DNA of 64,000 nt from an uncultured Candidatus Rokubacteria bacterium (GTDB taxonomy: Bacteria; Methylomirabilota; Methylomirabilia; Rokubacteriales; CSP1-6), in assembly GCA_963747235.1 (NCBI GenBank), contig CAVVEU010000040.1, positions 224,001 through 288,000 on the forward strand, read 5' to 3'. The notes below the pieces were generated by a model, which was not told the origin of the DNA, made no database searches, and saw only the letters and a list, made by a program, of their open reading frames with translations. Positions within the stretch are counted from its first letter, which is position 1, and each line of letters opens with the position of its first letter. Of the stretch, positions 4,623 to 60,022 are shown in pieces. The translations under genes were made by a program, and so were the position numbers.

Positions 4623-9539
<4,917 letters not shown>

Positions 9540-12026: not shown

Positions 12027-14322
12027 CTATCGGGGGACGACTTCGGCATCGGCGCTGCGCTCGGCCAGGCCCAGGCGGCGGTGGAGCGAGACCAGCGGCG
12101 CGGGCGCCCACCAGTTCCACCGCCCCATGAGCCGCATGGTGGCGGGCACCAGCAGGGCCCGCACGATGGTGGCGTCGATCACCACCGCGAGCCCGATGCC
12201 GATGCCCACCGCCTGGATGATCACCGAGCGCGCGGTCGCGAAGCCGAAGAACACCGCGGCCATGATGGCGGCCGCGCCGGTGATGAGCCGCCCGGTGGAC
12301 TCGAGCGCCTCGGCCACCGCCCGCGTGGTGTCGCCGGTGCGCTCGTACTCCTCCTTCACCCGGCTCAGCAGCAGGACCTCGTAGTCCATCGAGAGGCCGA
12401 AGACGAAACAGAACATGATGAGCGGCGTGGCGGTCTGGATCGGGCCCGGGGTGAAGTGCAGCCAGCTCGCGAGATGCCCCTCCTGGAAGATCCACACCAG
12501 CGCGCCGTAGGACGCGCTGATGGACAGGAGGTTCATGATCACGGCCTTGAGCGGCAGCAGCACCGAGCCCAGCAGCAGGAAGAGCACCACGTAGGTCGCG
12601 ACCATGACGAGGCCGACCGTCATCGGGGCGTGGCGCGTGACCATGTCGATGATGTCGAGATCGAAGGCGGTCTGGCCCGTCACGAGCACCTCGCCCGCGA
12701 GCCGCGGGTGCGACGCGCGGATCTCCTCGACCAGGGCACGCGCCTCCGGGCTCGACGGCTTGAGCGCGGTCGAGACCACCAGCAGGGCCAGGCGGCCGCC
12801 GACGGTCTGCCGCAGGACCTGGGTCACGCCGGGCGGGCGCATCTCCGCGGGCGCGGTGGCGAGCTGCTGGTACTGCTCGCGCGTCACGCTCGGATCGAGA
12901 TCCACCAGGCTCTCCACCCGCGCCACGTTGGGCCGCGCGGCGAGCCAGCGGCTGAGATCGTAGAGGCCGCCCACGCGCTCCGCGGTGAGGGGCGTACCGT
13001 CCGGGTAGCGCACCACCACCAGGATCCGGTTGCTGTCGGCGCCCGGGAAAGTGCTCGCGGAGCACCTCGTCGCCGCGCCGCGAGACCGCCTCCGGCGGCA
13101 GCGCGTTGACGTCGCCCGAGCCCACCTTCAGGTGCAGGAACGGCAGCCCGAGGAACAGCAACAGGGCCGAGACCGAGATGAAGACCGCCCACGGATAGGC
13201 CATCACGGTGACCGCGATCTGGTGCCAGATCCCGCGCCCGGTCAGGCGGCGCTCGGGATGGATGAACGGCAGCCGGAGCGCGTTGACCCGCGGCCCGAGC
13301 ACGGCGAGCAGCGCGGGCAGGAGCGTGAGCGCGTAGAGCACGGCCAGCGAGACGACCACGGTGCCGGCCCAGCCGATCGAGCCGATGTTGCCGAGCCCGA
13401 GGAAGACCATGCCGAGCAGCCCGATCGCGACGGTGAGCCCGGAGAAGAGGATGGCCCGCCCGGCGGTGGCCATCGTGCGCTCGAGCGCCTCCGACCCGGG
13501 GTGCTCGCGGATCTCCTGGCGGAAGCGGCTCACGATGAAGAGGGAGTAGTCGATGGCCACCCCGAGGCCGATCATGGTCACGATGTTCGGCGCGTAGACC
13601 GAGACCGAGGTGTAACGGGCCATGAGCAGCGTGGCCGCGATGGCGCCCGCCATCGAGAGCGCGCCCACCGCCAGCGGCAGGAGCGCGGCCACCACCGAGC
13701 CGAACACCAGCAGGAGCAACACCACCACCACGGGCAGGATCACCAGCTCGGCGCGCCGCAGATCGGTGCGCGTCACCTCGGTGAAGTCGTGGTTGAGCGG
13801 GATGTTCCCGACCGGCAGCACCTCGAGGGTCTCGGTCTTCACCAGCGCCCGCAGCGAGGGATACACGTCGGGGGGCAGCACCGAGAACTCGAGCGAGGAG
13901 AACGCGGCCGCCTCGCCCTTCAGCTCCACCACCACCAGCACCCGCCGGCCGTCGCGCGACACGAGCTGGGCGGCCGGCACCGAAGCGTCGTAGACCGGCG
14001 GGTCGTACGCGGTCAGGACGCGGGCCACGCGCGCGTCGCGGCGGAGCGGCGCCACCGCCCGCTCGACTTCCTGGCGAAACGCGGGGTCCTGGGCCGAGCG
14101 GGTGGGGCTGCTGAAGATGAAGCTGAACGAGGGCGGCCGGCCTGGCAGCTCACGCCCGATCAGATCGAGCGCGCGGCCGGACTCCGTCGTCGTCGGGATG
14201 TCGGTGGTGGCGAGGCGCCCGCCGTGGAAGATCAGCCAGAGCGACGGCACCAGGCTCAGCAGGGACAGGGCGATGATGGCCACCCGGAAGCGATGAACGA
14301 GACGGCCCCATCCCGCGAGCAT
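12027..14322 (-). CDS. MMPL/RND family transporter, frameshifted
   Basis: LLLVFGSVVAALLPL, GLGVAIDYSLFIVSRFRQE, TAGRAILFSG, FGLSMDYEVLLLSRVKE, TGRLITGAA, DATIVRALLVPATMRLMG.WNWW. Confidence 0.92.
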
Positions 14323-14743: not shown

Positions 14744-15239
14744 TCAGAGAAGCTGCTCCATGATCAGGACGTCCACCCAGCGGCCGTCGAGCTGGCCCTG
14801 CTCGTGGTACACGCCGACCGGCGTGAAGCCCATGCGCCGGTAGAGCGCGAGGCCCGCGTCATTGTAGGGAAAGGTGGCCAGCACCATCTTGTGATAGCCG
14901 ATCTGGCGCGCGAGCCCGAGCACGTGCTGCAGCAGCGCCTTGCCCACCCCGCGGCCCCGCCAGGCGCGCTCGACGTAGACCGAGAGATCCACCACGTTGT
15001 CGTAGGCGGGGCGCGGATTGAACGGGTTGAGGCTCCCCCACCCGACCACCTGGCCGTCGGTGGTCGCGACGACCACGGGGTGACGCGGCCCGCGCGCGGC
15101 CATCCACTGTCGCCGCTCCTCCGGGCGTGCGCAGCTCGGTCTCGAGCGTGGCGATGCGGTCCTCGATGCCCTGGTTGTAGATCGCGCAGATCGCCGCGGC
15201 GTCGTCCGGCGTCGCGGGGCGTAGCGAGACGTCCCCCAT
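14744..15239 (-). CDS. GNAT N-acetyltransferase, ArsN1/phosphinothricin acetyltransferase-like, frameshifted
   Basis: RPATPDDAAAICAIYNQGIEDRIATLETE..., WGSLNPFNPRPAY, SVYVERAWRGRGVG, YHKMVLATFPYN, GVYHEQGQLDGRWVDV. Confidence 0.8.
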
Positions 15240-15298
15240 GAGCGTGCCTCCCTTGCCCCGCAGTCTGCCCGCGCGGCCGCGATAAGGGAAATAGATTG

Positions 15299-15319
15299 TT
15301 CTCATACCGACGATGAGAA
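15299..15319. promoter_or_regulatory. Inverted repeat, candidate LysR operator
   Basis: TTCTCAT-N7-ATGAGAA in the AT-rich gap between the divergent GNAT and LysR genes. Confidence 0.5.
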
Positions 15320-15332
15320 ATACTTTGGGACG

Positions 15333-16289
15333 GTGGATCTCAATCCCGCCCACGTGCGCACGCTCCGGGAAATTGCGCGCCATGGAAGCTTCTCGCGCGC
15401 GGCGGAGAGCCTGCGCCTGAGCCAGCCCGCGGTGAGCCTGCACATGCGCCAGCTCGAGGCCCGCTGCGGCACCGCGCTGCTCGAGCGGGTGGGCAAGCGC
15501 GCGTTCCCTACTCCGGCGGGGGTGGTGCTGCTGGAGCACGCCGGGCGGGCGTTCGCCGAGCTCGAGGCCGCGCAGGAGGCGCTCCGCCAGCTCCGCGGGG
15601 TGGTCGCGGGGCGGCTGCGCCTCGGCACCGGCGCCACCGCGAGCATCCACCTGCTGCCGCCGCTCCTGCGGCGGATGCGGGCGCGCTACCCCGAGCTCGA
15701 GCTGATCGTGGTGACCGGCAACGCGCCCGAGATCGCGGCCGCCGTCGCGGCCAACGAGCTCGACGTGGCCATCGTCACGCTGCCCGTGACGGGCCGCCAG
15801 CTCCTGATGACGCCTCTGTTGCTCGACCCGCTGGTGGCGGTGGGCCCGCCCGCGCAGGCATGGCCGCGGCGGGGCGCGCTCACCGCGGCCGAGGTGGCGC
15901 GCCACCCGCTCATCGTCTACGAGCGCGGCGGCACCATCCGGCGCGTGATCGACGGCTGGTTCCGTCGCGGGGGCGCGCGGCCCCGGATCGTGATGGAGCT
16001 CGGCAACGAGGAGGCCATCAAGAAGCTGGTGGGCGCGGGCCTCGGCGTCTCGGTGAGCCCGGCCATGGCGGTGCGGGACGAGGTGCGCTCGGGCGCGCTC
16101 TCCATGCGGCCGCTTTCGCCCGCCCTGGTGCGGCGCCTCGGCCTCGTGCGCCGCCGCGACAAGCCCGAGACCCCGGCGCTTCGCATGTTCCTCACGGCGG
16201 TCACCGCGCTCGCTAATGAAAATCGTGCGAAGGGACGCTCGCCAGCCGGTGGCGCAGCGGGGCGAGCCGCTCGGCGCGCACCGAGGTGA
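15333..16289 (+). CDS. LysR family transcriptional regulator
   Basis: HGSFSRAAESLRLSQPAVSLHMRQLE HTH, GRLRLG, EAIKKLVGAGLGVS. Confidence 0.93.
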   Translation: MDLNPAHVRTLREIARHGSFSRAAESLRLSQPAVSLHMRQLEARCGTALLERVGKRAFPTPAGVVLLEHAGRAFAELEAAQEALRQLRGVVAGRLRLGTGATASIHLLPPLLRRMRARYPELELIVVTGNAPEIAAAVAANELDVAIVTLPVTGRQLLMTPLLLDPLVAVGPPAQAWPRRGALTAAEVARHPLIVYERGGTIRRVIDGWFRRGGARPRIVMELGNEEAIKKLVGAGLGVSVSPAMAVRDEVRSGALSMRPLSPALVRRLGLVRRRDKPETPALRMFLTAVTALANENRAKGRSPAGGAAGRAARRAPR

Positions 16290-19200
16290 CGTTGTCCTGG
16301 CGCTGTAGAATGCCCTCGATCAGGAGGAAGGGCTCGTTGACGAGGGCCAGCCGGTGGCGATGGAAGAGCGCGGGCCGCACGATGACGTTGACCAGGCCCG
16401 TCTCGTCCTCGAGGTTCAGGAACACGAAGCCCTTGGCGGTGCCGGGCCGCTGGCGCACCACCACCGCCCCCGCCACCTTCACCCACGCCCCGTGACGGAA
16501 GGCGGCCAGATCCGCCGCGCGCGACACACCCATCCGTAATAGCGCGCCGCGCCGGAAGGCCATCGGGTGCGGCCCGAGCGTGAGGCCGGTGCCCTCGTAG
16601 TCGGCGATCAGCCGCTCCTCCGCGCTCATCGGCCGTAGCGGCGAGGGCTCCCGCGGCGCGGGCAGGTCTTCGTAGAGCGCCCCCGCGGGGCGCCCCGCGC
16701 GCTCCGCCTCCCAGAGCGCGGCCCGCCGCTCCGGCTCGAGGCTCGCCAGCGCGCCGACCCGCGCGAGCTGGGCCAGCTCGTCGCGCCGCAGCGCGCCCCG
16801 CTTCACCACGTCCTCCACCGAGGCTGAAGGGCCGCCGCCGGCGCTCCGCCTCGAGACGCCGCCCCGCCTCTTCCCGCAGCCCGCGCACGTAGCGCAGCCC
16901 GAGCCGCACGACGCCGTCCGGCTCGATGGCGCAGAGCCAGCCCGAGAAGTTCACGTCGGCGGGCCGGATCCCCTGCCCGTGCCGGCCCGCGTCGCCGATG
17001 ATGGTGGCCGGATCGTAGAAGCCCATCGGCTGGTTGTTGAGCAGCGCCGCGTAGAACGCCGCCGGGTGATGCGCCTTGAGATACGCGCTCGCGTACGCCA
17101 GCAGGGCGAAGCTCGCCGCGTGGGAGTTGTGGACGATCAGGTCATTGGCCACGAAGTTGTGGTCGCCCTCCACGGTGAGGTCGTACGTCTCCCGCACTCC
17201 GACCGGCGCCACGCTCACCACCCGGTCCCAGTCAACGTCGGTCATCTCCGACGTCCGAGGCGCCGCGATGTGGTCGCCGGGGCGCAGGCTCCCGAGCGGC
17301 TGCCAGCCGTCGACGGTGAGCAAGGGATGCTCCGGCGTGGCCAGCAGCTCCCGGCCCAGCGCGGTGCGAAGGCGATGGACCATCCGAGGGCCGCTCGCGG
17401 TGGCCGCGAGCACCCGGCGCTTCCGGATCTTGAGATCCGCATCGCACGCGAAGGTGTGCGTGAGCGGCACGTTCCCCTTCACCACGTCCTCGATCTTCAC
17501 CCGGCGTCCGGTCTCCGCGTCGATGACGAGCGTCTCGCCCACCACGCACTCCGGGAAGCCGTACAAGGCGAAGGCGGTGATGGAGTGGATGATGGCCTCG
17601 GCGGCGGCGCCCGAGATGCCCTGGCGCGCCATGCCCGCGCGGAGCTTCACCTCCACCTCGCGCATGGCCCGCTCCGAGCGCTTGAAGCCGAAGGCGCGGC
17701 GCAGCTCCTCGGCCTCGCCGCCGGTGAAGCCGGCGGTGGCCATCGCCATGCGGAGTAGCTGCTCCTGGAAGAGCGGCACGCCGAGCGTGCGCTCCAGGAT
17801 GGGCTCGAGCGCGGGATGCGGCACCGTGATCGCCTCGCGGCCCGCGCGGCGGCGCAGGTAGGGATGCACCATGTCGCCCACGATGGGCCCGGGACGGATG
17901 ATGGCCACCTGCACGACCAGATCGTAGAAGCGCTCGGGGCGCAGGCGCGGCAGCGTCGCCATCTGGGCGCGGCTCTCCACCTGGAAGACGCCGATGGTGT
18001 CGGCCTGCTGGAGCATGGCGTAGACCTTGGGATCGTTCTGGGGGAGATGGGCCAGGTCCACCGCGCCGCCGCGGCGCCGGATCATCTCGAGCGCGTCCTG
18101 GAGCAGCGACATCATGCCGAGCCCCAGCAGATCCACCTTGACGATGCCGAGCGCGGCGCAGTCGTCCTTGTCCCACTGCACCACGCTGCGGCCGGGCATG
18201 GTGGCGGGCTCGAGCGGCACCACGCCGTCGAGGCGCCCCTGGGCGATCACCATGCCGCCCGAGTGCTGGCCCAGGTGCCGCGGCAGATCCTGGATGCCGC
18301 TCCAGAGCCGGGCGAAGTGCTGCATGCGCGGCTCGGCGGGATCGCAGCCGGCCTCGCCCAGGTGCGCGAGCAGGCTGTCGCCCGGATCCGTGTACTCCCA
18401 GTTGCTCACGAGCTGGGAGAGCCGCTCGATCGTGTCGGCGGGCAGGCCCAGGGTCTTGCCGACCTCCCGCGCCGCGCTGCGCCCGCGATAGGTGATGACG
18501 TTGGCGGTCATGGCCGCGCCGAGGCGCCCGTAGCGCTCGTAGACGTACTGGATCACCGTCTCGCGCCGGTCGCCGCTCGGCAGGTCGAGATCGATGTCGG
18601 GCCACTCGCCGCGCTCCTCGGAGAGGAAGCGCTCGAAGAGCAGCTCCATGCCGACCGGATCCACCGCGGTGAGGCCGAGCGCGTAGCACACCGCGCTGTT
18701 GGCCGCGGAGCCGCGCCCCTGCACCAGCACGTCGTGGGCACGGCAGTACTGGACCAGGTCCCAGACGATGAGGAAATAGCCCGCCAGGTCGAGGCGGCCG
18801 ATCAGGGCCAGCTCGTGCTCGATCTGCCGCCGCGCCTTCTCGGCGAGCGGGCCCGAGCCGTACCGGTCGCGGGCGCCCGCGTGGGCGAGCTCGCGCAGGA
18901 AGCCGATCGGCGTCTCGCCGCGGGGCAGCGGGTAGTCGGGGAAGCGATAGCCCAGGTCCTTCAAGGTGAAGCCGAGCCGCAGCGCCAGCTCGCCGGTATT
19001 GGCCACCGCTTCGGGGCAGTCCGCGAAGAGCCGCTCCATCACCCGGCCGCTCTTCATGAAGTGCTCGCTGTTGCGCGCGAGCAGGCGGCCCGCGGCCTCG
19101 AGCGTGGTGTGCTCGCGGATGCACGTGAGCACGTCGAGCAGCGGGCGGTCCCCGCGCGCGATCAGCCGGGGCTCGTTGGTGGCGAGCGGGGCCAGGCGGA

Positions 19201-19744
19201 GTCGCGCGGCCTCGCCGCGCAGCCACTCGTTGCGCGCTTCCTGCGGGCGGCTCAGGTGGCGCTGCAGCTCCGCGAAGACGTTGGAGCGGCCGTAGATGCC
19301 GACGAGCCGCTCGAGGCATTCGCGCCCGGCATCCGCGCCGGCGCGCGCGAGCGCGGCCGCCACCGGGCCGCGGCCGCTGCCGGTCAGGCAGACGAGGCCG
19401 CCCGAGAACTCGGCCAGCTCTTCGAACGTGGCGGCGCCTTCCCCCTTCGGCGCGCGCATCTTCACCCGGGTCAGCAGGCGGCAGAGGTTCTGGTATCCCT
19501 CGCGATCTTCCACCAGCAGCGGCAGCCGGCTGCCGTCGCCCAGCGTGATCTCCGCGCCCACCAGCGCCGAGAGGCCGAGCCGGGTGCAGGCGCGATAGAG
19601 CCGGGGCGCGCCGTAGACGCCGTCGGCGTCCAGCAGCGCGACGGCGGGCTGCTCGAGCCGCGCCGCGCGCTCGGCCAGCGCTTCGGGCAGCGCCGCCGCC
19701 TCGAGAAAGCTGAAGGCACTCCGGGCATGCAGCTCGACGAACAC
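16213..19744 (-). CDS. dnaE2: Error-prone DNA polymerase DnaE2 (ImuC) with an intein; one frameshift near 16820
   Basis: ELHARSAFSFL PHP start, GRGSAANSAVCY, PDIDLD, PRHLGQHSGG, QWDKDD, GVFQVESRAQ, LLNNQPMGFY, RQRPGTAKG, C-terminal SHDFH (DnaE2-specific SRDFH-type motif). Confidence 0.95.
17126..17548 (-). mobile_element. Mini-intein (141 aa, class 1, no homing endonuclease) in DnaE2
   Basis: In-frame insert between YGFPE and SHAASFA. Cys1 (CVVGETLV), block B TPEH, block F TYDLTVEGDHNF, terminal VHN, +1 Ser. Confidence 0.95.
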
Positions 19745-19764: not shown

Positions 19765-21048
19765 CTAGTCGTAGATGCCTTCGAGGCGCCAGGCGGAGCC
19801 GTCATGCGCCAGGCGGCACAGCGTGCCGTCGGCCAGCTCCACGTCCCACTCGTCCTGCAGCCACGGCCGTGGGCTCCACCATTCGCCCGAGACGCGCCAC
19901 GGCCCCACCCCGGCGACGATGCGTCCCGTGAGGCGGCCCGAGCGCACCGCCACCGGCCGGCCGGAGGCGAGCGTCACCGACGCGGGCGCGGGCGGGCGGA
20001 GGCGGCGGAGGGCGAGGGCGGGGGCCTCGCCCCTCGTCTTCCTGCCCTCTCCCCTCAGGGGAGAGGGATAGGAGGCGAGGGCGACGGCGTCGGGGCGGTG
20101 GGTGTCGAGCAGCGCGGGGGCGCCGATGGCCTCGGCGCCCACGAGTGCCACCAGGCGATTTAATGTGGCGGTGAGCTGACGCGGAGCGGGGCGCGAGCGA
20201 TCGGTGAGCGACTCCTGCGCGGGCGCGAGCCGCACCGGGCGCGCGCGAAACGTGAGCGCTTCCACCACGCCGCGCGGCGGGCGCGCTTCGAGCGCCAGGC
20301 GGAGCAATCCTCCGACCGACCCGGCATCGGTGATCGGCACCGCGGGCGTGAGCGCGCCATCGTGAACGCGGCCGTCGCCGAGCCGGCAGGTCCACTCGAA
20401 GCTGTCCGCCGCGAGCCCGGCGGCGCCGAGGCGCGCGCAGACGCGGGCGGCCAGCTCGCGCAGGCGCTCCACCACCGGCTCGAGCGTCTCGAGCCCCCAC
20501 TCGCACGCGGCCGATTCCTCGAAGAGCGGCACGGGCCGCCACGAGACGAGCGGGCGCGGATCTTCCCCGCGGGCCAGTCGCTGGAGCCGGACGCCGTCGC
20601 CGCCGAGTCGCTCGAACAGCCCCGCGGTGGGCAGGGCGGCCAGCTCGCCGAGCGTGCGGAGCCCCCATCGCGACAGGCGCGTGGCCGTCTCCTCCGGCAG
20701 ATCGAGCAGCGAGAGCGGCGCCGGGGCGAGATAGGCGGCGTCGCCGCCCGGCGCGACGACCAGCACCCCGGGCCCCAGGCGCGCGGCGGCGAGCGCGGCG
20801 ATGCGGCTCTCCGCGATGCCCACGCGAATCTCCACGCTCGCCGACGCGGCGGCGGCGCGGAGCCGCGCGGCCAGACGTGGCTCGTCGCCGAAGAGCCCTT
20901 CGAGGCCGGACGCGTCGAGATAGAGCCGGCCGGCGCCGGCGTCCTCCACGCGGGGGGAATGCGCGAGCGCCACGCGTAGCAGCGCGGGCCGCGCGGGTTG
21001 ATTCCCCGCGGATTGATTCATGGTCAGCAGGCAGGCGATGCGGGTCAT
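19765..21048 (-). CDS. imuB: ImuB (inactive Y-family polymerase-like)
   Basis: SPRVE..YLDASGLEGLFGDE, LAPAPLSLL, WGLRTLGELAALP, LLDTHRPDA, GPWRVSGEWW..DEWDVEL..GIYD. Directly upstream of dnaE2. Confidence 0.88.
   Translation of the reverse strand: MTRIACLLTMNQSAGNQPARPALLRVALAHSPRVEDAGAGRLYLDASGLEGLFGDEPRLAARLRAAAASASVEIRVGIAESRIAALAAARLGPGVLVVAPGGDAAYLAPAPLSLLDLPEETATRLSRWGLRTLGELAALPTAGLFERLGGDGVRLQRLARGEDPRPLVSWRPVPLFEESAACEWGLETLEPVVERLRELAARVCARLGAAGLAADSFEWTCRLGDGRVHDGALTPAVPITDAGSVGGLLRLALEARPPRGVVEALTFRARPVRLAPAQESLTDRSRPAPRQLTATLNRLVALVGAEAIGAPALLDTHRPDAVALASYPSPLRGEGRKTRGEAPALALRRLRPPAPASVTLASGRPVAVRSGRLTGRIVAGVGPWRVSGEWWSPRPWLQDEWDVELADGTLCRLAHDGSAWRLEGIYD
20045..20067. repeat. 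REP/BoxC-like palindrome inside imuB
   Basis: CCCTCTCCCC-TCA-GGGGAGAGGG hairpin; same motif at 21116 and in 49694-49779. Confidence 0.75.
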
Positions 21049-21074: not shown

Positions 21075-21138
21075 CCCCTCACCTTAATCCCCTCACCCTT
21101 AATCCCCTCACCCTTCCCTCTCCCCAGAGGGGAGAGGG
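21075..21138. repeat. REP/BoxC-like element with a tandemly repeated CCCCTCACC(C)TTAAT arm
   Basis: CCCCTCACCTTAAT CCCCTCACCCTTAAT CCCCTCACCCTT CCCTCTCCCC AGA GGGGAGAGGG. Confidence 0.8.
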
Positions 21139-21714
21139 TATGGGGAAGGGCGGGAGCGGAAGATGGAGACCTCGGAGCGGAGGCCGGCCAGACGGGTGAG
21201 CGGGCGGAGCCCCATCCAGCGCGGCGCCGAGCCGCCGCGTGGCCAGGACCAGGGAGGCGGGGCTGCCCTCGCGATGGCGGGCGCTCCGGGTGATCAGGAT
21301 GGTGTCGCCGCCCTCCACCGCGCGCTGCAGCCGCAGATGGGCCGAGGCGGGCATGGGCCCGAGCTCGTCCAGGTCCAGCACGACCAGGGCGAATCCGGGG
21401 CAGCGGACCAGGAGATCGGCGGCGCTGAGCGCCACGCGGAGCCGGCCCCCGCACTTCACCCACAGCAGCGCGGAGAGATCGGCCCCGGCCGACGCGGCGG
21501 ACGCCGGGTCGAGCGCGTCCATCCCGTCCACGAAGGCCACCTGGCCGCCTGAAGTCGTGATCCGGGCGATGAGAGCCAGGAGCAGGCTGCTGCCTCCGGA
21601 GGATCGGGGACCGACGATCTCGCTGAGCCGGCCCGGTGGGAACAGACCGAGCAGGCCGTCGATCCCCTCGCGCTCCCATCCTGGCGGGGATGAGGACTCG
21701 ATCGGGATAGCCAT
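21079..21714 (-). CDS. imuA: ImuA (RecA/SulA-like), 3' end frameshifted or uncertain
   Basis: GIDGLLG..PPGRLSEIVGPRSSGGSSL (degenerate P-loop), VAFVDGMDALDPASA..AGADL..LLWV, ADLLV..GFALVVLD. First gene of the imuABC cassette. Confidence 0.8.
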   Translation of the reverse strand: MAIPIESSSPPGWEREGIDGLLGLFPPGRLSEIVGPRSSGGSSLLLALIARITTSGGQVAFVDGMDALDPASAASAGADLSALLWVKCGGRLRVALSAADLLVRCPGFALVVLDLDELGPMPASAHLRLQRAVEGGDTILITRSARHREGSPASLVLATRRLGAALDGAPPAHPSGRPPLRGLHLPLPPFPIPSPLWGEGRVRGLRVRGLR

Positions 21715-21739
21715 GAGGCTCTATAAGATGACCAGGCCG

Positions 21740-21762
21740 TATTACACATCACCTGTTTAGTA
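21740..21762. promoter_or_regulatory. Imperfect palindrome upstream of imuA, candidate LexA/SOS box
   Basis: TATTACACA-N5-TGTTTAGTA (7/9 symmetric) in an AT-rich patch 26 bp upstream of the imuA ATG. Confidence 0.45.
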
Positions 21763-21780
21763 TATGCAACCACAAAAAAA

Positions 21781-32807: not shown

Positions 32808-33362
32808 CTAGAGACGGAAGCGGGCGCGGATCTCGTCGGGCCGCTCGGAGTAGGGCGGGATCGCCTCGGCCGGATCGAAGGCGATCTCGACCACGATCAG
32901 CGCCGGGGCGCCCGCCCCGCGCGCGCGCGTGAACGCCTCGCGCAGCCCCGCGACGTCGCCGACCGAGGCCACGTGGCCGATGCCGGCCGCGCGCGCCAGC
33001 GCCGCCCAGTCCACCGCCACCGCGGGGAGCGCCTGCCCGCCGGAGGACTCGTACCGGCCGTTCACCCAGAGCACCATCGTCAGATTCGGCGGCGCGGCCG
33101 CGGCCACGGTGGCCAGCACGTTGGGGCTCATCAGCAGCGAGCCGTCGCCCTCGAGCGCGACCACGTGGCGGTCGGGGCGCTGGAGCGCCATGCCGAGCCC
33201 GAGCGGGATCGCCGCGCTCATCGAGTCGCACAGCGCGAACACCGGACACGGCACCGTCATGTGCGGCAGGTAGCGGGCGTTGGCGCCCAGGCAGGAGACG
33301 AGCACGTCGCGCGGCGTCAGCATCGCGACCAGCGCGTCCAGCAGCGGCTTGCGCGCGGTCAC
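32808..33362 (-). CDS. TPP-dependent decarboxylase beta subunit (ComE/phosphonopyruvate decarboxylase-like)
   Basis: GLGMAL..PDRHVVALEGDGSLLM..LAT..NL....NGRYESSGGQ TPP-binding motif. Confidence 0.82.
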   Translation of the reverse strand: MTARKPLLDALVAMLTPRDVLVSCLGANARYLPHMTVPCPVFALCDSMSAAIPLGLGMALQRPDRHVVALEGDGSLLMSPNVLATVAAAAPPNLTMVLWVNGRYESSGGQALPAVAVDWAALARAAGIGHVASVGDVAGLREAFTRARGAGAPALIVVEIAFDPAEAIPPYSERPDEIRARFRL

Positions 33363-33853
33363 GCGAGATCCTCCCCGCTGATCAGCAGCACGAAGGGCCC
33401 GCGCGACTCCACGCAGAACTCGACGCCCTGTTGCACCTGATGGGCCAGGTCGCCCCGGCGGTCCGCGCGCGCGTGAGGCAGCCGCCAGGCGCGCAGCGTC
33501 TCCTCGGTCACGCGGCCCTTGGGCGCGTGGTAGTAGACCGGATCGCGATGATCGCCCCTCAGGGACACGATGAAGAAACACGGCAGATGGTAGAGCTCCA
33601 CGAGCCCGGCCAGGATCCCGCCGCAGTTGAGCAGCCCCGCGTTCTGGATCAGCACCGCGCCGCGCCCGCCGGCCAGGTTGGCGCCGCAGGCCACCGCCAC
33701 CGCCTCCTCCTCGCGGGCCACGTCCACCGCGCGCAGCCGCGGCGAGCGGCGCACCCCCGCCATCAGCCGGCCGATCCACGTATCCGGCACCGAGGCCACG
33801 ATCGAGACCTGGGCCGCCTCGAGCCCCGCGACGATCTGCTCGAGCCCGGTCAC
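33359..33853 (-). CDS. TPP-dependent decarboxylase alpha subunit (ComD-like)
   Basis: VASVPD, REEEAVAVACGA.LAG, LIQNAGLLN, IVSLRG. Confidence 0.82.
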   Translation of the reverse strand: MTGLEQIVAGLEAAQVSIVASVPDTWIGRLMAGVRRSPRLRAVDVAREEEAVAVACGANLAGGRGAVLIQNAGLLNCGGILAGLVELYHLPCFFIVSLRGDHRDPVYYHAPKGRVTEETLRAWRLPHARADRRGDLAHQVQQGVEFCVESRGPFVLLISGEDLA

Positions 33854-34929
33854 CGGCCGGCCTCGGCCGTCGCGGACCCGAGCCGCATGAAGGCGTCCGC
33901 CGGCAGGTGCACCCGCAGCGCCTGGCCCGACGCGAGCGCGACCGGGGCGGGCTCGGGCACGAACACGAAGAGGCGCTGGCCGCCCGCGATCTCGACGGTC
34001 AGATCGGTCTGCACGCCCTGGTAGACCACGCCGGTGACGCGGCCGTCCACCACGTTCTCCCCCGGCCCCCCGGCGAGCCGGACGCGCTCCGGCCGGATGG
34101 CCAGCTCGACCGCCTCGCCCGCTCGAAGCCCGGGCACACCCACGACGCGGACCACCTCGCCGCCCGCGAGCGTCACCTGGTCCGCGGCGGTCGCGCGGCC
34201 GCGCAGCACGCTGGAGGCGCCGATGAACTCGGCCACGAAGCGCGTCGCCGGCCTCTCGTAGATCTCGCGCGGGGCGCCGAGCTGCTCGATGCGCCCGCCG
34301 AGCATCACCGCGATGCGGTCGGAGAGCCCGAGGGCCTCGGCCTGATCGTGGGTGACGAAGATCGTGGTGATGCCGACCGAGCGCTGGATCTCCCGCAGCT
34401 CGCTCCGCATCTCCTCGCGCAGCTTCTTGTCGAGCGCGGCGAGCGGCTCGTCCAGCAGCAGCACGCGCGGCTCGTAGACCAGCGCCCGGGCCAGGGCGAC
34501 CCGCTGCTGCATGCCCCCCGAGAGCTGGGCCGGGCGGGCCTCCGCGCGCGTGTCCAGGCGCACGAGGGCCAGCGCCGCCCGCACCCGCCGCTCGATCTCC
34601 GCCCGGGGCGTCCGTCGCTCGCGCAGGCCGAAGGCCACGTTCTCGAACACGGAGAGGTGCGGGAAGAGCGCGTAGGACTGGAACACCACCCCGAGCCTGC
34701 GCTGGTGGGCCGGCTGGTCGGTGACGTCCTGGCCGTCGATCCGGATGCGGCCGGCGGTCGGCGGCACGAATCCCGCGATCAGGTTGAGCGTGGTGGTCTT
34801 GCCGCAGCCCGACGGGCCGAGCAGCGAGAGCAGCTCGCCCTCGTGGACGACCAGGTCGAGCCCCGCGACCGCGTGGACGCCGCCGTAGTCGCGGGTGCAC
34901 CCCACCAGCTCGACCACCGCGCGCGCCAT
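33850..34929 (-). CDS. ABC transporter ATP-binding protein (PotA-like)
   Basis: [43 protein letters not shown]-terminus. Confidence 0.92.
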
Positions 34930-34954
34930 CAGCCGAGCCTCCCCGGTGCCCGCT

Positions 34955-37582: not shown

Positions 37583-38068
37583 CTATGGCGTGCGGGGTTG
37601 AGCGACCAGCGCCTGAGCGGCCGCCTCGATGGCCTCGACGATGAAGTGGTAGCCGGTGCAGCGGCAGAGGTGCCCGGCCAGCATCTCGCGGATCTCCTCG
37701 CGCGACGGCGCGGGCCGCTCGCGGAGAAACGCGCAGGCGCTCATGATGATACCAGGGGTGCAGTAGCCGCATTGCAGCCCGTGCTTGGCCCAGAAGGCTT
37801 CCTGGATCGGGTGGAGCCCGTCGGCGGGGGCGACGCCCTCGATCGTCGAGACACCATGGCCGTCCGCCTGCACCGCCAGCATCAGGCAGGCGCGCACCGG
37901 CTCGCCGTCGAGCAGCACCGTGCACGCGCCGCACACCCCGTGCTCGCAGCCCACGTGGGTGCCGGTGAGATCGAGGTCTTCTCTGAGGAAATCGGCCAGG
38001 GTCGCGCGCACCTCGACCGTGCGCTCGTGCGCCTGGCCGTTCACGGTCACCCGGATCGCCTTGTTCAC
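37583..38068 (-). CDS. (2Fe-2S) subunit of xanthine dehydrogenase family (CoxS-like)
   Basis: GCEHGVCGACTVL, QCGYCTPG, LCRCTGY. Confidence 0.92.
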   Translation of the reverse strand: MNKAIRVTVNGQAHERTVEVRATLADFLREDLDLTGTHVGCEHGVCGACTVLLDGEPVRACLMLAVQADGHGVSTIEGVAPADGLHPIQEAFWAKHGLQCGYCTPGIIMSACAFLRERPAPSREEIREMLAGHLCRCTGYHFIVEAIEAAAQALVAQPRTP

Positions 38069-38942
38069 GACGCGCTCCCTCCGCACCGCGCGAGCGCCGC
38101 GGTCAGCGTGCGCTCGGCCAGGGTGGCCGCCACCTGCCGCCGGTACGACGCGGTGGCGTGGATGTCGCCGTCGGGCGAGAGCCCCGCCGCCGCGGCGCGC
38201 GCGGCCTCGCCGATGAGGGCCGGCGTCGGCGCGCGGCCTTCCAGCGCCCGCTCCGCGGCCGCGCCCCGCATGGGCGTCCCGCCCGCGCCGAAGAAGGCCA
38301 GCCGCGCCCGCGCCACCGTGCCGTCGGCGGCGCGCGTGAGCACCGCCACCGCGCCCACCAGGGCGAAGTCGCCGTGGCGGCGCGAGACCTCCGCGAAGCC
38401 CCAGCCCGAGCCGGCCGGCGGCAGCGTGAAGCGCACCGCGGTGGCCAGCTCGTGGCCGCCGAGCGCGGTGGTCAGCGGGGCGCGGTAGAACCGGTCGGCC
38501 GGGATCATGCGCTCGCCCCGGGGCCCGCGCGCGACCACCACGCCGTCGAGGCAGAGCAGCAGCGCGGGCAGCTCCGAGGCCGGATCCGCGTGGACGAGAT
38601 TGCCCACCACCGTGCCGCGATTGCGGATCGGCGGGTGCGCCACCACCCGGAGCACACTCGGCGAAGAGCGGCGAGCCGGCCCGCCGCCCAGCGCTCGAGC
38701 GCGCGCTGGCGCACGAGGGCGCCGATGCTCGAGGATGCCGCGAGGCCTCGCGGATCCCGTCGAGTCCCCGCAGCCGGTTGATGTCCACCAGCACCGCCGG
38801 CCGCGCCAGCCGCAGCGCCAGCATCGGGATCAGGCTCTGGCCGCCGGCCAGGATCTTGGCGTCGTCGCCCGCGGTGGCCAGCGCGCCGATCGCGTCGTCG
38901 AGCGTGCGCCGGCGCCACGTAGTCGAACGGGGCGGGCTTCAT
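38065..38942 (-). CDS. FAD subunit of xanthine dehydrogenase family (CoxM-like), frameshifted
   Basis: MKPAPFDYVAP, LAGGQSLIP, IRNRGTVVGNLVHADPASE, RRHGDFA, DIHATASYR. Confidence 0.9.
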
Positions 38943-41307
38943 GCGGGCATCGCCTTCCGGGCCGCCGCCTGCTCGAGCAGCCCGAGCACCACCGACGGGC
39001 CCAGGGGCGTGCGGGTCACGCGCACGCCGAACGGGGCGAGCGCGTCCTCGACCGCGTTGGCGATGGCGGCGGGCGGCGAGATCGCCCCGCCCTCGCCGAT
39101 GCCCTTCAGGCCGAGCGGGTTCCGCGGCGACGGGTACTCGAGGTGCACGGTCTCGATCGGCGGCAGCTCCATCGCGGTCGGCACCAGGTAGTCCATGAAG
39201 GTCCCGGTCAGGAGCTGCGCCTGCTCGTCGTAGACCATCTCCTCCAGGAGCCCGCCGCCGACGCCCTGCGCGACGCCGCCGTGGATCTGGCCCTCGACGA
39301 TCACCGGATTGATGAGCGTCCCGCAGTCGTGGGCCACCAGGTAGCGGAGCAGCTTCACCGCCCCGGTGCCGATGTCCACGTCCACCACCGCGACGTGGGT
39401 GGCGCTCGTGTAGGTCACGGTCGGCTGGTGATGGTACACCGTCGCCTCGAAGTCGGGCGAGGCCACGCCGGGCTTGGCGAACGTGGGGATCGCGGCCCGG
39501 ATCACGCTGGCGAGCGGGATCGCCGAGGCCGGCACCCCGCGCACCGACACGACCCCGTCCGCCAGCTCGATGTCGGCGGGCGCGGCCTCGAGCAGCGCGG
39601 CGGCGGCCGCGATCAGCTTGTCTCGCACGCGGCCCGAGGCCTCGTGGATGGAGCTGCCCGCGTTGACCGCGCTGCGCGAGGCGAACGTGCCGACCCCGAA
39701 CGGGATCGCGGCGGTGTCACCGCCCACGATGGTCACCGCCTCGAGCGGGATGCCCAGCGCGTCGGCCGCGATCTGGGCGAACGAGGTCTCGTGCCCCTGC
39801 CCCTGGCAGCAGGCCCCGGTGGCGACCACCGCGTGGCCCGAGGCGTCGAGCCGCACCGTCGCGCCTTCGTAGGGCCCGATCGCGGTGCCCTCCACGTAGC
39901 TGGAGATGCCGATGCCGCGATGGATCCCCCGCTCGCGCAGCCGCGCCTGCTCGGCCCGCAGGGCGTCGTAGCCGACCGCGCGAAGGGCCGCCTCGAGGCC
40001 GGCCTTGAAGTCGCCGCTGTCGTAGACCAGCGGGTTGCCGTCGCGATACGGGATGCCGCAGCTCGTACGGCAGGTCGGCCGCGGACAGGAAGTTGCGCCG
40101 GCGCAGCTCGGCCGGGTCCATGCGCGAGCTCGCGCGCCAGGCAGTCCACGATGCGGTCCATCGCGAACACGGTCTCGGGGCGGCCCGCGCCGCGATAGGG
40201 CGCGTTCGGCGTCTTGGTGGTCACCACGCCGAGGCACTCGACGTCGAGGTTCGCCACGCGATGCGGGCCCAGCAGATGCGCCACCGTGTTGTAGGGCAGC
40301 ACGATGCCCCAGGAGTTGTAGGCGCCCAGGTCCACCCAGATGCGATCGCGCACGGCCAGCATGGTCCCGTCCCGCCGCGCCGCGATCTCGATGTCGTGCA
40401 CCTGGTGCGCGCGCGTGGGCCGAGCCCATCATGTGCTCGCGCCGGTCCTCGGTCCACTTCACCGGCCGGCGCGCCAGCGATGGCCGCGGCGGGGATCAGC
40501 AGGTCCTCCGCGTAGCCGTTGGCCTTGGTGCCGAAGCCGCCGCCCACGTCGGGGGCGATGACGCGGATCTTGTGCGGCGGCAGCCCGAGCGCGGCCACCA
40601 GGCCCTGCTGCACGAAGTGGACGACCTGGGTGCCGTTCCACGTGGTGAGCGTGCCGTCCCGCGCATCCCACTGGGCGACCACGCCGCGCGTCTCGATCGG
40701 CATGCCCACGTAGCGCGGGATCACGAAGCGCTCGCGCACCCGCGCGTCGGCCTGGCGGAAGGCCGCCTCGACGTCGCCGAAGCCCGGTCTTGAACGAGAG
40801 GGCGATGTTGTCGCCCCACGCCGGATAGAGCACGGGCGCGTCGGGCCGCGCGGCCGCCTCCACGTCGGCCAGCGCGGGCAGCGGCTCGTAGTCGACCTCG
40901 ATCAGCTCGCAGCCGTCCTCGGCCACCGCGCGGCCTGACGGCCAGCACCATGGCCACGATCTCGCCCACGTGCCGCGCCTCGTCCCGGCACATCGCGAGC
41001 TGGTGGGGCTGCTTCATGGTGACGACGACGCGCGCGGCCAGGCCGGGCGGGATCGCGCCGAAGAGCGGCAGCGGCTTCATCCACCGCTCGAGATCGGCGA
41101 AGGTGAAGACGTGGGCGACGCCGGGCGAGCCGCCGGGCCGCGTCGGTGCGGATCGCCGCGATGCGCGCGTGGGCGTGCGGGCTGCGCACGAACGCCGACG
41201 TGGAGCATCCCGGGCAGCTTGATGTCGTCCACGAAGCGGCCCTCGCCGCGGAGGTAGCGCGGGTCTTCCTTGCGTCTTACCGATGCTCCGAAGTACTTGG
41301 CGCCCAT
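38939..41307 (-). CDS. Molybdopterin-binding subunit of xanthine dehydrogenase family (CoxL-like), multiple frameshifts
   Basis: RKEDPRYLRG, RSPHAHA, PDVGGGFG, KWTEDR, PYRGAGRPE, GQGHET, TFASRS, EGQIHGG, KGIGEGG. Confidence 0.9.
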
Positions 41308-42986: not shown

Positions 42987-43957
42987 CGCCGACGCAGGGC
43001 GGGCCAGCCGCCCGCAGGGCTGGCCAAGCTGCCCGCAGGGCTGGGACGATCCCCTCCGGCATGAAGAACAGCACCGCGATCAGCAGGACGCCGTAGAGCA
43101 GCATCTGCCACTGGTACGAGGTCAGCTCGCGCAGCACCTCCGGCAGCACCGTGAAGAGCACGGCGCCCACCACGGGCCCGGCCAGCGTCCCCTTGCCGCC
43201 CGCCACCACCATGATCACCATCGTGACCGTGTAGGTGAAGAGGAAGACCTCCGGGCTGACGAAGCGCGTGTAGTGCGCGTAGAGGCCGCCCGCGAAGCCG
43301 GCCATCGCGGCGCTCGCCACCGCGGCCAGCACCAGGTAGTGGGTCGCGTCGATCCCCACCGAGGCGGCGAGGGTCTCGTTCTCCCGGAGCGCCACCAGGG
43401 CGCGGCCGACCCGCGAGCGAATCAGACCCAGGCAGAGCAGATAGGCCAGCACCACCGCGGCCAGCACCAGGTAGTAGTAGGCGCTCTTGGTGCGCAGCGA
43501 CAGGGCGGCGAGCCCGGGCAGCGCGATCTCCACCGGCGGCACGCCCGGGATGCCGAGCGGCCCGTTCGTCAGGTCCATCCAGTTCACGCTCACCAGCGAG
43601 ACGCAGCCCGCGAAGGAGATGGTCAGCAGCACGAAGTAGGCGCCGCGCAGCTTCAGCGCGAGCCGGCCGATGACGTAGCCGGCCAGGCCCGGCAGCACGA
43701 TGGCGGCCAGCAGGCCGAGCCACGGCGACCACTCGAGCTTGACGCTCAGCAGGGCGGAGGCGTAGGCGCCGATGCCGAAGAAGGCGGCGTGGCCGAGCGA
43801 GAGCTGCCCGGTATAGCCCAGCAGGAGATTCAGGCTCAGCGCGAGCACCGCGAAGATGCCGGCCATGATCAGCGTGTGGAGGTGATACGGGTTCCACACC
43901 CAGGCGGGCGCGGTCAGGACAACCGCGATGCCGATCACGCGCGCGAGGACGCCTCAT
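42971..43957 (-). CDS. Branched-chain amino acid ABC permease (LivM-like)
   Basis: LNLLLGYTGQLSLGHAAFFGIGAY, LRGAYF, GGKGTLAGP, PEGI. Ends approximate. Confidence 0.88.
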   Translation of the reverse strand: MRRPRARDRHRGCPDRARLGVEPVSPPHADHGRHLRGARAEPESPAGLYRAALARPRRLLRHRRLRLRPAERQARVVAVARPAGRHRAAGPGRLRHRPARAEAARRLLRAADHLLRGLRLAGERELDGPDERAARHPGRAAGGDRAARARRPVAAHQERLLLPGAGRGGAGLSALPGSDSLAGRPRPGGAPGERDPRRLGGDRRDPLPGAGRGGERRDGRLRGRPLRALHALRQPGGLPLHLHGHDGDHGGGGRQGDAGRARGGRRALHGAAGGAARADLVPVADAALRRPADRGAVLHAGGDRPSPAGSLASPAGGWPALRRRWRPS

Positions 43958-44828
43958 CCCACGCGCTCGGCGCGGGCGAAGAGGCCCGAGGGGCGCAGCA
44001 GCAGCACCGCGACGATCATCAGGAAGCCGACCGCGTCGCGGTAGCCGGAGGAGATGTAGCCGGCGCCCAGCTCCTCCGCGATCCCCAGCACGAGACCGCC
44101 CAGCGCGGCGCCGCCGAAATTGCCCAGGCCCCCCAGGATGACCACCGAGAACGCCTTGAGCGAGGCCAGGTCGCCCATGGACGGGTAGAGCAGGAACACC
44201 GGGCCCAGCAACGCGCCCGCCGCCGCGGCCAGCCCGGCCCCGAACGCGAAGGTCACGGTGTGGATGCGCTCGATGCTCACCCCCATGAGCGCCGCGGTCT
44301 CCCGGTCCTGGAAGGTGGCGCGCATGGCGCGGCCGAGCTTGGTGCGGCTCAGCAGGAGATGCGCGCCCAGGATCAGGAGGCCCGAGACCACGAACACGAA
44401 GATGCGGAGCGGCGCCACCGACACCGCGCCCAGCACCACCGGCTGGGTGGGGAAGGGCGTGGGCACGCTCTTGGCCACCCCGCCCCAGCCGAGCAGCTCC
44501 GCGTTCTGCATCGCGATCCAGAGGCCGATCATGACGAGCATGACCGTGTCGATGGACTGGCCGCGCAGGGGTCGCAGCAGCACCCGCTCGCAGACCGCGC
44601 CCGGCCAGCGCGCCCGGCCACGATGGCGAGCGGGATCGCGAGGAAGAAGTGCACCGAGGCGAGCGCGAGCGCGGCGAACGCGGCGTAGGCCCCGAACGTG
44701 TAGAACTCGCCGTGGGCGAAGTTCACCACGTTCATCAGCCCGAAGACCAGCGTGAGGCCGATCCCGAGCAGGCTGTAGGTGGCGCCCAGCAGCAGCCCGT
44801 TCAGCAGGTGCTGGAGAAGCTGGTCCAA
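43954..44828 (-). CDS. Branched-chain amino acid ABC permease (LivH-like), frameshifted
   Basis: GLTLVFGLMNVVNFAHGE, GRAMRA, ILGGLG, RPSGLF. Confidence 0.88.
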
Positions 44829-44850
44829 GCGCCCGCGATCGCCGGTCGCG

Positions 44851-46020
44851 CTACTTCTTGGCCGAGAACGCCGGCAGCGCGATCTTGCCGTCCTTCACCT
44901 GGACGATGAAGATGCTGGGCTTGCTCTGCCCGCTCTCCTTGCCGGCCGGCCCGTCCTTCTCGAACTTGATGGGCCCGTTGACGCCCATCACGTTCACCTG
45001 CCAGAGCGCGGCCTGCACCGCCTTCGGATCCGCCTTGCCCGCGATGCGGATGCCCTCCACCGCGGTGAGCACGCCGTCGTGGCCGCGGAAGCCCTCGGTC
45101 AGCCCCTCGAAGGGATGGCCCCGCTTGGCCCACTCGTCCACGAAGGCCTTCGCCAGCTTGCCGTCGGGCATGGCCTCCGGGAACCACGGCAGGAAGAACA
45201 GGATGTGGTACGTCCCCTCCGCCGCCGCGCCCGCCTGCTTGATGAGCTGGGACGGCGACGAGCTGCCGCCGGTGGTGATGACCTTGCGGACGAGCCGCTG
45301 CTCCTGCGCCTGCTTCAGGACCAGCGTGATCTGCTCGACGCTCGTGGTGAGGAAGAGCGTGTCGGCGCCGCCCGCCTTCACCTTGGTGATCTGCGCGTTC
45401 ATGTCGGTGGCCGCCTGCTCCATGAACTCGGCGGTGCCCACCTGCGCGCCCGAGCGCTTGAGCAGGTCGCCGAAGGCCCCGACCGCGCCGCGGCCCCAGT
45501 CCGTGTTCACCGCGAGGAAGTCGGCCTGCTTGATCCCCAGGTCCTTCATGTACTTCTCGAGGCCGAGCGCTTCCATCTCGCTGGGCGGGCTGATGCGGAA
45601 GATCCACGGGTTGCCGCGCTTGGTGATGGTGGAGGCGCTCGAGGTCTCCACCACCATCGGCACGCCGTATTCCTCGAGCTTCGGCATGGCCGCGAGCGTC
45701 ATCGAGCTACCCCAGGCGCCCACGATCACCGGCACCTTGTCGCGCACGATCAGCTTCTCGGCCGCGGTGGCGGCTTCCTTCGGGTCGGACTTGTTGTCCT
45801 CGATCAGCAGCTCGACCTTGCGGCCGAGCACGCCGCCCTTGGCATTGATCCAGTCCCGCCCGATCTCGGCGCCCATCCGGACGTAGTTGCCGGAGGCGGC
45901 CACCGAGCCCGACAGCGGCTGGATGACGCCGATCTTCACGGCTTCCTGGGCGGGCGCCGGCGCCGCGAGCGCGGCGACGACGGACAGCGCGACGAACAGG
46001 GCTCGGATTGCCTGCTTCAT
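44851..46020 (-). CDS. Branched-chain amino acid ABC substrate-binding protein (LivK-like)
   Basis: Signal peptide, KIGVIQPLSG, INAKGGVLG, WIFR. Confidence 0.9.
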   Translation of the reverse strand: MKQAIRALFVALSVVAALAAPAPAQEAVKIGVIQPLSGSVAASGNYVRMGAEIGRDWINAKGGVLGRKVELLIEDNKSDPKEAATAAEKLIVRDKVPVIVGAWGSSMTLAAMPKLEEYGVPMVVETSSASTITKRGNPWIFRISPPSEMEALGLEKYMKDLGIKQADFLAVNTDWGRGAVGAFGDLLKRSGAQVGTAEFMEQAATDMNAQITKVKAGGADTLFLTTSVEQITLVLKQAQEQRLVRKVITTGGSSSPSQLIKQAGAAAEGTYHILFFLPWFPEAMPDGKLAKAFVDEWAKRGHPFEGLTEGFRGHDGVLTAVEGIRIAGKADPKAVQAALWQVNVMGVNGPIKFEKDGPAGKESGQSKPSIFIVQVKDGKIALPAFSAKK

Positions 46021-46103: not shown

Positions 46104-46160
46104 CATGTCACATGTCAAACGAAGACCCCGATTGACATTGCCGCAGGCCGCCCCAAGAAT
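46104..46160 (+). promoter_or_regulatory. GntR promoter/operator region
   Basis: CATGTCACATGTCA (tandem and palindromic) at 46104-46117, then TTGACA-N17-AAGAAT ending 8 bp before the GntR ATG. Confidence 0.5.
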
Positions 46161-46168
46161 ACGGCACC

Positions 46169-59152: not shown

Positions 59153-59158
59153 AGGCGC

Positions 59159-60018: not shown

Positions 60019-60022
60019 CGCG

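Follow-up and report, generated by a model that had tools for sequence, protein, structure and literature searches.

The window analysed here (the whole stretch of 64,000 nucleotides, from contig CAVVEU010000040.1 of an uncultured Candidatus Rokubacteria bacterium) carries on its minus strand a dnaE2 (imuC) gene, coding for an error-prone DNA polymerase, that is interrupted in frame by a 141-residue insert with the complete residue set of a class-1 mini-intein. The gene and its insert are made up of the following parts:

17126..17548, minus strand: mini-intein, class-1, 141 residues (translation, PF14890, matches to PDB 1mi8 and 4o1r)
17549..19744, minus strand: N-extein of dnaE2/imuC, residues 1-732, with a GTG start and ending in ...ALYGFPE (Pfam, NF004225)
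16826..17125, minus strand: first 100 residues of the C-extein, from SHAASFALL... to ...RRRRPF, in the frame of the N-extein (translation)
16825, minus strand: single extra base, an A on that strand, which shifts the dnaE2 frame (comparison with homologues and blastn)
16213..16824, minus strand: last 203 residues of the C-extein and the stop codon (rest of the HhH domain and OB fold), in the +1 frame (Pfam, NF004225)

The insert is encoded by positions 17126-17548 as 141 stop-free residues (CVVGETLV...NDLIVHN) that correspond to residues 733-873 of the minus-strand open reading frame (ORF) 15917-19744, where it is flanked by ...SITAFALYGFPE on the N side and by SHAASFALLAYASAYLK on the C side. 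It splits the motif ALYGFPE/SHAASF (a slash marks the splice junction; the C side extends as SHAASFALLAY), and the codons at the junctions are those of Glu-1 (17549-17551), Cys1 (17546-17548), Asn141 (17126-17128) and Ser+1 (17123-17125). The class-1 set comprises Cys1, T71-P-E-H74, D123, H130, H140-N141 and Ser+1, the C-terminal part with blocks F and G reading ...ETYD123LTVEGDH130NFVANDLIVH140N141/S. The GC content at third codon positions (GC3) of the insert, 0.90-0.95, is similar to that of the host gene. The 141 residues match Pfam PF14890 (Intein_splicing; E=4.4e-20, 72.5 bits against a cut-off of 35.8), they are above the cut-offs of the NCBIfam intein_Nterm and intein_Cterm models (TIGR01445, 50.3 versus 24.5; TIGR01443, 34 versus 15.6), and they align over their full length to the solved mini-inteins of Ssp DnaB (1mi8, E=6.9e-27) and Npu DnaB (4o1r, E=9.6e-26). 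Because all of these matches are strong, a chance resemblance is excluded. The boundaries are also exact, since intein-free orthologues read ...YGFPE-SHAAS... without interruption (74 of the 120 closest proteins and 73 of the 76 evaluable loci described below). No LAGLIDADG, HNH or other endonuclease family of Pfam or NCBIfam matches the insert, and the place between blocks B and F where relatives carry the endonuclease is taken by the linker PRT-SEMT-DVDWD. A preliminary description of this DNA, made from the letters alone, had reported a 141-residue in-frame insert at YGFPE/SHA that keeps every class-1 splicing residue and has no endonuclease; the translation, read residue by residue, the profile searches and the empty-site orthologues confirm these three points exactly.

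Conservation of the splicing residues was counted over 122 inserts parsed at the DnaE2 site, one of them a misparse. The terminal His-Asn and Ser+1 are kept in 122/122, Cys1 and the TxxH motif in 121 each, the block F Asp in 120 and the block F His in 118. Across a wider set of 146 splicing domains from related inteins, no group departs from Cys1 or H74, and position 71 is occupied by Thr or Ser. By analogy with the family, a precursor of 1176 residues would be translated first, Cys1 would undergo the N-S acyl shift with the help of T71 and H74, the thioester would then be transferred onto Ser+1, and N141 would cyclise with the aid of H140, D123 and H130. The products would be a 1035-residue DnaE2, joined as ...YGFPE-SHAAS..., and the free 141-residue intein. 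Splicing is most likely constitutive; the residues themselves are seen in the translation, and the chemistry and kinetics are those expected from the family. Unspliced DnaE2 would very likely be inactive, because the insert breaks an invariant motif of the finger domain. A permanent interruption of DnaE2 by a non-splicing HINT domain, either a bacterial intein-like (BIL) domain or a degenerate intein, is hardly credible: although block F is changed in a few related alleles (the His to Gln, to Arg or to a different context in 4/122, the Asp in 2/122), the window copy has every canonical class-1 residue together with Ser+1, its boundaries match exactly the empty site of the orthologues, and it is strongly similar over its full length to solved, splicing-competent inteins.

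A protein search with the intein and its flanks gave 582 matches at E<=1e-3. The best 120 of these 582, parsed at the junction, are all DnaE2-like proteins with a precomputed PF14890 label, and their inserts fall into the following size classes:

Insert of 137-163 residues: 64 of 120
Insert of 193-224 residues: 8 of 120
Insert of 299-425 residues: 47 of 120, most of the largest being of 422-425 residues
Misparsed insert: 1 of 120

The search with the N-extein provides the unbiased sample. Its 120 closest orthologues have an N-extein 88-99% identical to that of the window, and the state of the site in them is:

Empty site: 74 of 120
Mini-intein: 31 of 120
Intermediate intein: 6 of 120
Full LAGLIDADG intein, 422-425 residues: 7 of 120
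Unparsed site: 2 of 120

The preliminary description had proposed to map the intein alleles across dnaE2 orthologues, and empty, mini, intermediate and full forms do turn out to be interleaved at this level of host identity. To place them on a host phylogeny, an extein tree of 113 rows was calculated with FastTree, 8 of the 120 sequences having been dropped (short N-extein or unparsable junction) and the window added. Intein presence or absence needs 31 changes on this tree, and shuffled labels need 33.9 on average with a minimum of 28; the starred branches alone impose at least 21 changes. The smallest well-supported clade around the window, of 7 rows, holds 3 empty sites, 3 mini-inteins and 1 full intein. 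Intein presence is in essence close to random on the host extein tree.

At the DNA level, 76 of 80 loci in species-representative genomes were evaluable, of which 73 are empty and 3 contain an intein (423, 139 and 144 residues; the full form of 423 residues is that of L002). These three are found among the 11 evaluable loci labelled Methylomirabilota/Rokubacteria, with 0/65 elsewhere. The intein identity in the intein-bearing loci (L002, L005 and L007) is 57-72%, and since the three loci are too distant for synonymous rates, divergence of the intein was measured on protein: its splicing parts diverge a median 2.1-fold more than the N-extein, and far more among the closest pairs. As a separate observation, the contig of the closest locus, L001 (6096 bases, N-extein 98% identical), ends at the last base of the codon that precedes the intein site, as would be expected of a break in the assembly graph at a site where strains with and without the intein occur together.

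The full forms reveal where the endonuclease has been lost. One homologue (P0013) has a 422-residue LAGLIDADG intein at the same site that is 93.4% identical to the window intein over the splicing parts, and its endonuclease sits exactly at the SEMT of the window linker, so that PRT-SEMT-DVDWD replaces about 281 residues of the P0013 intein. Full inteins at the DnaE2 site carry PF14528, with the motifs LADLIAEG and LARLWEGDG, and both LAGLIDADG motif patterns are present in 43 of the 48 inserts of at least 299 residues (the misparse included). The linkers of the mini-inteins are varied (PRTSEMTDVDWD; PRTRPARLGHPLDSPELKRLGVSDVGWD; PRVLPVLDSVEMKRLANSEVYWD; and others), and what they retain of the ends of the endonuclease is not the same from one to another. 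The endonuclease has accordingly been deleted many times independently, and the 141-residue form of the window is one of several independent deletion products.

With respect to the origin of this lineage, a profile-free scan of 1.84 billion representative proteins found 5842 relatives of the intein. Among the best 150 of these 5842, the same site is heavily used in the replicative polymerase DnaE1 (...YGFNK/C...HN/SHSAAYA...), and the intein carriers include a second flavour of DnaE2 extein, LGFGEYGFPE. The 12 DnaE2-site inteins group in a single clade (Shimodaira-Hasegawa-like approximate likelihood ratio test, SH-aLRT, 99) of a tree calculated from 146 splicing domains, and this clade is nested in a 44-tip clade (SH-aLRT 94) that consists of 32 DnaE1 and 12 DnaE2 inteins and nothing else; DnaB-site inteins lie outside the DnaE clade. 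The simplest reading of this unrooted tree would be one transfer between the paralogues DnaE1 and DnaE2 at a homologous site. Inteins at the YGFNK/SH site of DnaE1 resemble the DnaE2 intein in occupying the same conserved motif YGF-x-x/SH, in being class-1 with Cys1 and Ser+1, and in the LAGLIDADG endonuclease nested in the full forms of both. They differ in the host, which is the replicative DnaE1 with NK/SH, whereas here it is the error-prone paralogue DnaE2/ImuC with PE/SH and the inteins form a clade of their own.

The best solved matches, the Ssp and Npu DnaB mini-inteins (1mi8, 4o1r), share the blocks of the DnaE2 intein, are similar to it in size and have the endonuclease site in the corresponding loop, between blocks B and F. 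Their host is, in contrast, the DnaB helicase, and they were reportedly made in the laboratory by deletion of the endonuclease, whereas the DnaE2 mini-intein is a natural deletion. The split DnaE inteins of cyanobacteria share with the DnaE2 intein the protein family and the finger-domain hot spot, but they are naturally split and trans-splicing, have Cys+1, reside in the replicative DnaE1 and are weakly similar to the window intein (7qil, E=0.0017; 2keq, E=0.044). Ser+1 aligns with Ser759 of E. coli Pol III alpha (...SHSAAYAL) and with Ser816 of the Taq enzyme, and the native exteins of Npu DnaE are AEY/CFNK (PMC3759424). From this junction and the alignment with Ser759, the split-intein site lies 4 residues upstream, as the preliminary description had stated. 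According to Novikova et al. (2016), the intein sites a-d and g of PolIII alpha form a hot spot within 75 finger residues, site a being the split cyanobacterial one (PMC4760082). The Mtu RecA intein and its laboratory minis (2in0, 3ifj, 5k08) are likewise class-1, come from an SOS/repair host and match over their full length (E ~1e-18 to 1e-19). Their host and site are different, and conditional splicing has been argued for the Mtu RecA intein (PMC11377839).

Some other proteins found in the scan are worth recording on their own. Two DnaE1 proteins (P0167, 2210 residues; P0194, 1308 residues) have related inteins at up to three or four finger/palm sites (...GVFQFE/C, ...TYGI/C...HN/CVYQEQ and ...FNK/...SH), which is the PolIII alpha hot spot within single proteins. 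Two others (P0123, 5631 residues; P0214, 1769 residues) contain many repeated C-terminal HINT-like segments (...IVAHN/TY...) without N-terminal intein halves, and these look like BIL or Hint modules in repetitive proteins and not like true inteins. One entry of the representative library (P0242) has GGSGG linkers and a His6 tag inside the intein and is evidently an engineered construct within the public protein set.

Taken together, a homing intein is circulating in the dnaE2 (imuC) genes of Methylomirabilota/Rokubacteria-like soil bacteria. The patchy presence, the repeated loss of the endonuclease and the nesting among DnaE1-site inteins point to a selfish homing cycle, the stages of which would all be represented in the population (empty sites, invasion by the full 422-425-residue form, partial deletion and the minimal form), with homing and homologous recombination shuffling them among nearly identical host alleles. 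The insert of the window is a genuine class-1 mini-intein and very probably what remains of a LAGLIDADG homing intein after loss of the homing endonuclease, an ordinary selfish element in dnaE2. Several points weigh against this explanation. The HINT fold of the insert is deduced only from its homology to solved inteins. The closest 120 orthologues include 31 mini-inteins and 7 full ones, and a purely parasitic model can account for such persistence of forms without endonuclease only by slow loss. The intein tree is unrooted and gives no direction for the transfer between DnaE1 and DnaE2, and the extein tree has many weak forks. Furthermore, the orthologues come from metagenome assemblies, in which some of the patchiness could reflect strain mixtures or chimeric contigs. 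Finally, if the insertion at 16825 is real, this copy of dnaE2 would be a very recent pseudogene.

The preliminary description had gone further and proposed that a homing-incapable intein in a damage-inducible mutator polymerase could act as a post-translational switch on mutagenesis. The mini-intein would then have been domesticated as a conditional switch (responding to redox state, metals, single-stranded DNA or temperature) that delays maturation of the polymerase, and conditional splicing would be what keeps the forms without endonuclease, the mutasome polymerase being kept back as an inactive precursor that matures upon DNA damage or oxidative stress. We consider this very unlikely. It would agree with three facts: where the closest orthologues have an intein, it most often lacks the endonuclease; each catalytic residue is retained in between 118 and all 122 of the inserts; and a second cysteine is conserved. 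Conditional splicing is also documented for other repair-protein inteins: besides that of Mtu RecA (PMC11377839), two reports describe it for a recombinase intein with single-stranded DNA (PMC5238726) and for a DnaB intein with zinc (PMC7360933). However, a useful regulator would not be expected to be missing from 74 of the 120 closest orthologues and to be scattered nearly at random over the host tree; over the splicing parts there is 93% identity with full homing forms of this site, the deletions of the endonuclease are many and independent, and the intein diverges faster than its extein. The proposed switch is therefore not sustained by the near-random presence on the host tree, the repeated loss of the endonuclease and the faster divergence of the intein.

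The second cysteine, Cys35, is encoded at 17444-17446 in the motif T-[LF]-A-C-D and is kept in 114 of 121 DnaE2 inteins. It is present in 12 of the 34 DnaE1-site relatives, and the same position is L, V, I or M in DnaB-site and P-loop-site inteins and in 19 of the 34 DnaE1-site inteins. As the aligned position is hydrophobic in related inteins, Cys35 is probably a buried core residue and ill-suited as an exposed sensor of redox state or metals, which counts against the switch, as does the lack of a cysteine in block F or at +1 of the window intein with which Cys1 could pair. A redox pair formed by Cys1 and Cys35 was considered and dropped for the same reason, position 35 being hydrophobic in the related inteins.

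The window ORF scores 1016 bits against the NCBIfam model NF004225, 'error-prone DNA polymerase' (cut-off 939), and 588 bits against the model of the replicative DnaE, NF004226, under its cut-off of 1002; a homologue (P0003) reaches 1220.6 bits with NF004225. The N-extein contains the Pfam domains PHP, DNA_pol3_alpha and DNA_pol3_finger, and its residues 280-733 share 97-99% identity with intact homologues such as P0009 and P0003. The preliminary description overlooked that a 1-base insertion at 16825 shifts the frame of dnaE2 100 codons past the intein. The window reads ccc ttc a gcc tcg gtg gag at this point and homologues read ...RRRRPFASVEDVVKRG; in the blastn comparison with L002 the alignment is CCCTTC-GCCTCC versus CCCTTCAGCCTCG. 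Intact homologues, of 1176 residues, read ...ERRRRPFASVEDVVKRG... across the frameshift point, and the 1275-residue ORF of the window is out-of-frame junk beyond residue 973. In agreement with this, the Pfam HHH_6 match stops at profile position 52 of 90 in the frame of the N-extein, and the frame of 16213-16824 contains the Pfam tRNA_anti-codon OB fold, covers NF004225 profile positions 844-1047 of 1047 and encodes a product nearly identical to the C-termini of P0003 and P0010. With its four coding parts taken together, dnaE2 has the same length as its intact homologues (732+141+100+203 = 1176 residues) and, once the intein is removed, the same length as the intein-free orthologues (1035 residues). 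A programmed frameshift at 16825 was considered and rejected: no slippery heptamer was seen, the relatives are in frame and frameshifts occur throughout the window. At its 3' end (stop codon at 16213-16215, minus strand) dnaE2 overlaps by 77 nucleotides a convergent LysR-family ORF (15225-16289, plus strand), and this overlap may be real or may come from a further frame error in the C-terminus of the LysR-family protein.

Frameshifts are by no means restricted to dnaE2. The window has at least 14 other genes or regions in which a single Pfam domain is split between overlapping frames (ABC_tran, DAO/GCV_T, MMPL, two TPP enzymes, FAD_binding_5, MoCoBD_1, BPD_transp_2, PALP, CoA_trans, Bac_luciferase, adh_short, FGE-sulfatase and AMP-binding), which gives a density of about 1 per 4 kb. 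The split-domain regions, all of them overlapping ORFs in different frames, are:

461-1493
4626-7057
12027-14322
32811-34954
37586-38938
39736-40901
43957-44894
46136-48899
53285-54926
56066-58013
59155-60015
59912-61650

This looks like an unpolished, error-prone assembly and not like gene decay. An indel comparison with L001, at 92% DNA identity, consists mostly of compensating gaps that are alignment artefacts and gives no error rate. As so many other genes and regions of the window are split, the dnaE2 frameshift too probably comes from the assembly, the extra base at 16825 being most likely an error of sequencing or assembly and no proof of a dead gene. That the whole of dnaE2 is a decaying pseudogene with the intein as an inert passenger is unlikely. 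The 1-base insertion at 16825 is indeed uncompensated and outside any homopolymer, there is a second one in imuA at about 21229 (see below), and the homologous genes of the relatives are intact at 1176 residues, but the splitting of at least 14 unrelated genes or regions is a pattern of the assembly and not of the cassette; moreover, both halves of dnaE2 have a GC3 of 0.9-0.98, are nearly identical to intact homologues and have no stop codons in their true frames. Since the assembly of the window is full of frameshifts, apparent pseudogenes in its annotation should not be over-read.

Upstream of dnaE2 on the minus strand there are two genes that resemble imuA and imuB:

21079..21714, minus strand: imuA-like gene, ORF of 211 residues with a RecA fold, first gene of the cassette (Pfam RecA)
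19765..21048, minus strand: imuB-like gene, 427 residues, divergent homologue of Y-family polymerases (Pfam IMS)

Their order along the strand is imuA-like (21714-21079), imuB-like (21048-19765) and dnaE2 (from 19744). The imuA-like product matches Pfam RecA with 51.3 bits (cut-off 27) and stays under the NCBIfam cut-offs for ImuA_translesion (35.6 versus 150) and ImuA' (31.6 versus 65). The imuB-like product is just over the cut-off of Pfam IMS (25.5 bits versus 23.2), and in NCBIfam it gives weak Pol IV matches far under their cut-offs and no match to an ImuB-specific model. Of 80 related loci, 57 contain, by tblastn, a homologue of the imuB-like gene and 48 one of the imuA-like gene; in 14/14 loci whose coordinates were inspected imuA/imuB homologues lie upstream of dnaE2, the imuB-like one on the same strand. 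The designation of this locus as an imuABC cassette in the preliminary description is therefore reasonable: the order and spacing of the genes support it, and curated models leave it unproven, the ImuA models being under their cut-offs and an ImuB-specific match being lacking. The identity of the imuA-like product with the closest locus, L001, is 96% by tblastn but restricted to residues 1-162 of 211. The alignment ends exactly where blastn finds one extra base of the window relative to L001, at 21229, and owing to this coincidence the annotated C-terminus of ImuA is probably out of frame.

In relation to SOS control, an AT-rich intergenic stretch of about 60 nucleotides (21715-21780) precedes the imuA-like gene in a window of 72% GC. 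It contains TGCATATACTAAACAG, of which just the ACAG half resembles an E. coli-type SOS box, whose consensus is CTGT-N8-ACAG, and there is no convincing palindromic LexA box in this region of about 60 nucleotides upstream of the imuA-like gene. A 30-nucleotide core upstream of imuA recurs in 1 of 80 loci, L001, with 2 mismatches (up to 9 were allowed).

Our literature searches on inteins together with DnaE2, error-prone polymerase, ImuC, mutasome or Rokubacteria/Methylomirabilota found no paper describing a DnaE2/ImuC intein. The polymerase surveys of Timinskas et al., in their available parts, mention that inteins were excised before the analysis and say no more about them (PMC3919608, PMC6511836), and the supplements of PMC4760082, as far as they are searchable, contain no match to a DnaE2 intein. 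In the databases, the DnaE2 intein is plentiful, with hundreds of proteins (the 582 matches) and automatic intein Pfam labels. The preliminary description had accepted that its switch would fail if the allele proved to be a well-catalogued, sporadically distributed selfish element: the alleles are indeed patchy in the manner of a sporadic selfish element, and their being well catalogued is not shown, as no paper was found.

As an intein, the element of the window is ordinary, with canonical chemistry, a site in a hot spot already known from the Pol III alpha family, and a distribution that is textbook for a selfish element. If conditional splicing of the DnaE2 mini-intein were true, it would be the first case in which an intein gates a dedicated mutator polymerase. 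Better supported than such a switch is the view that an intein lineage jumped between the paralogues DnaE1 and DnaE2 and that every stage of its homing cycle has been caught in an uncultured phylum. Besides the replicative DnaE1, the error-prone paralogue DnaE2/ImuC is now shown to host this intein lineage. In the Rokubacteria-like population, alleles with an empty site or with a full, a partly deleted or a minimal intein occur in hosts of 88-99% identity; this natural series is unusually fine-grained and could serve to study the homing cycle and the origin of mini-inteins. The natural Cys1/Ser+1 mini-inteins of 137-146 residues are a set that could be screened for protein engineering.

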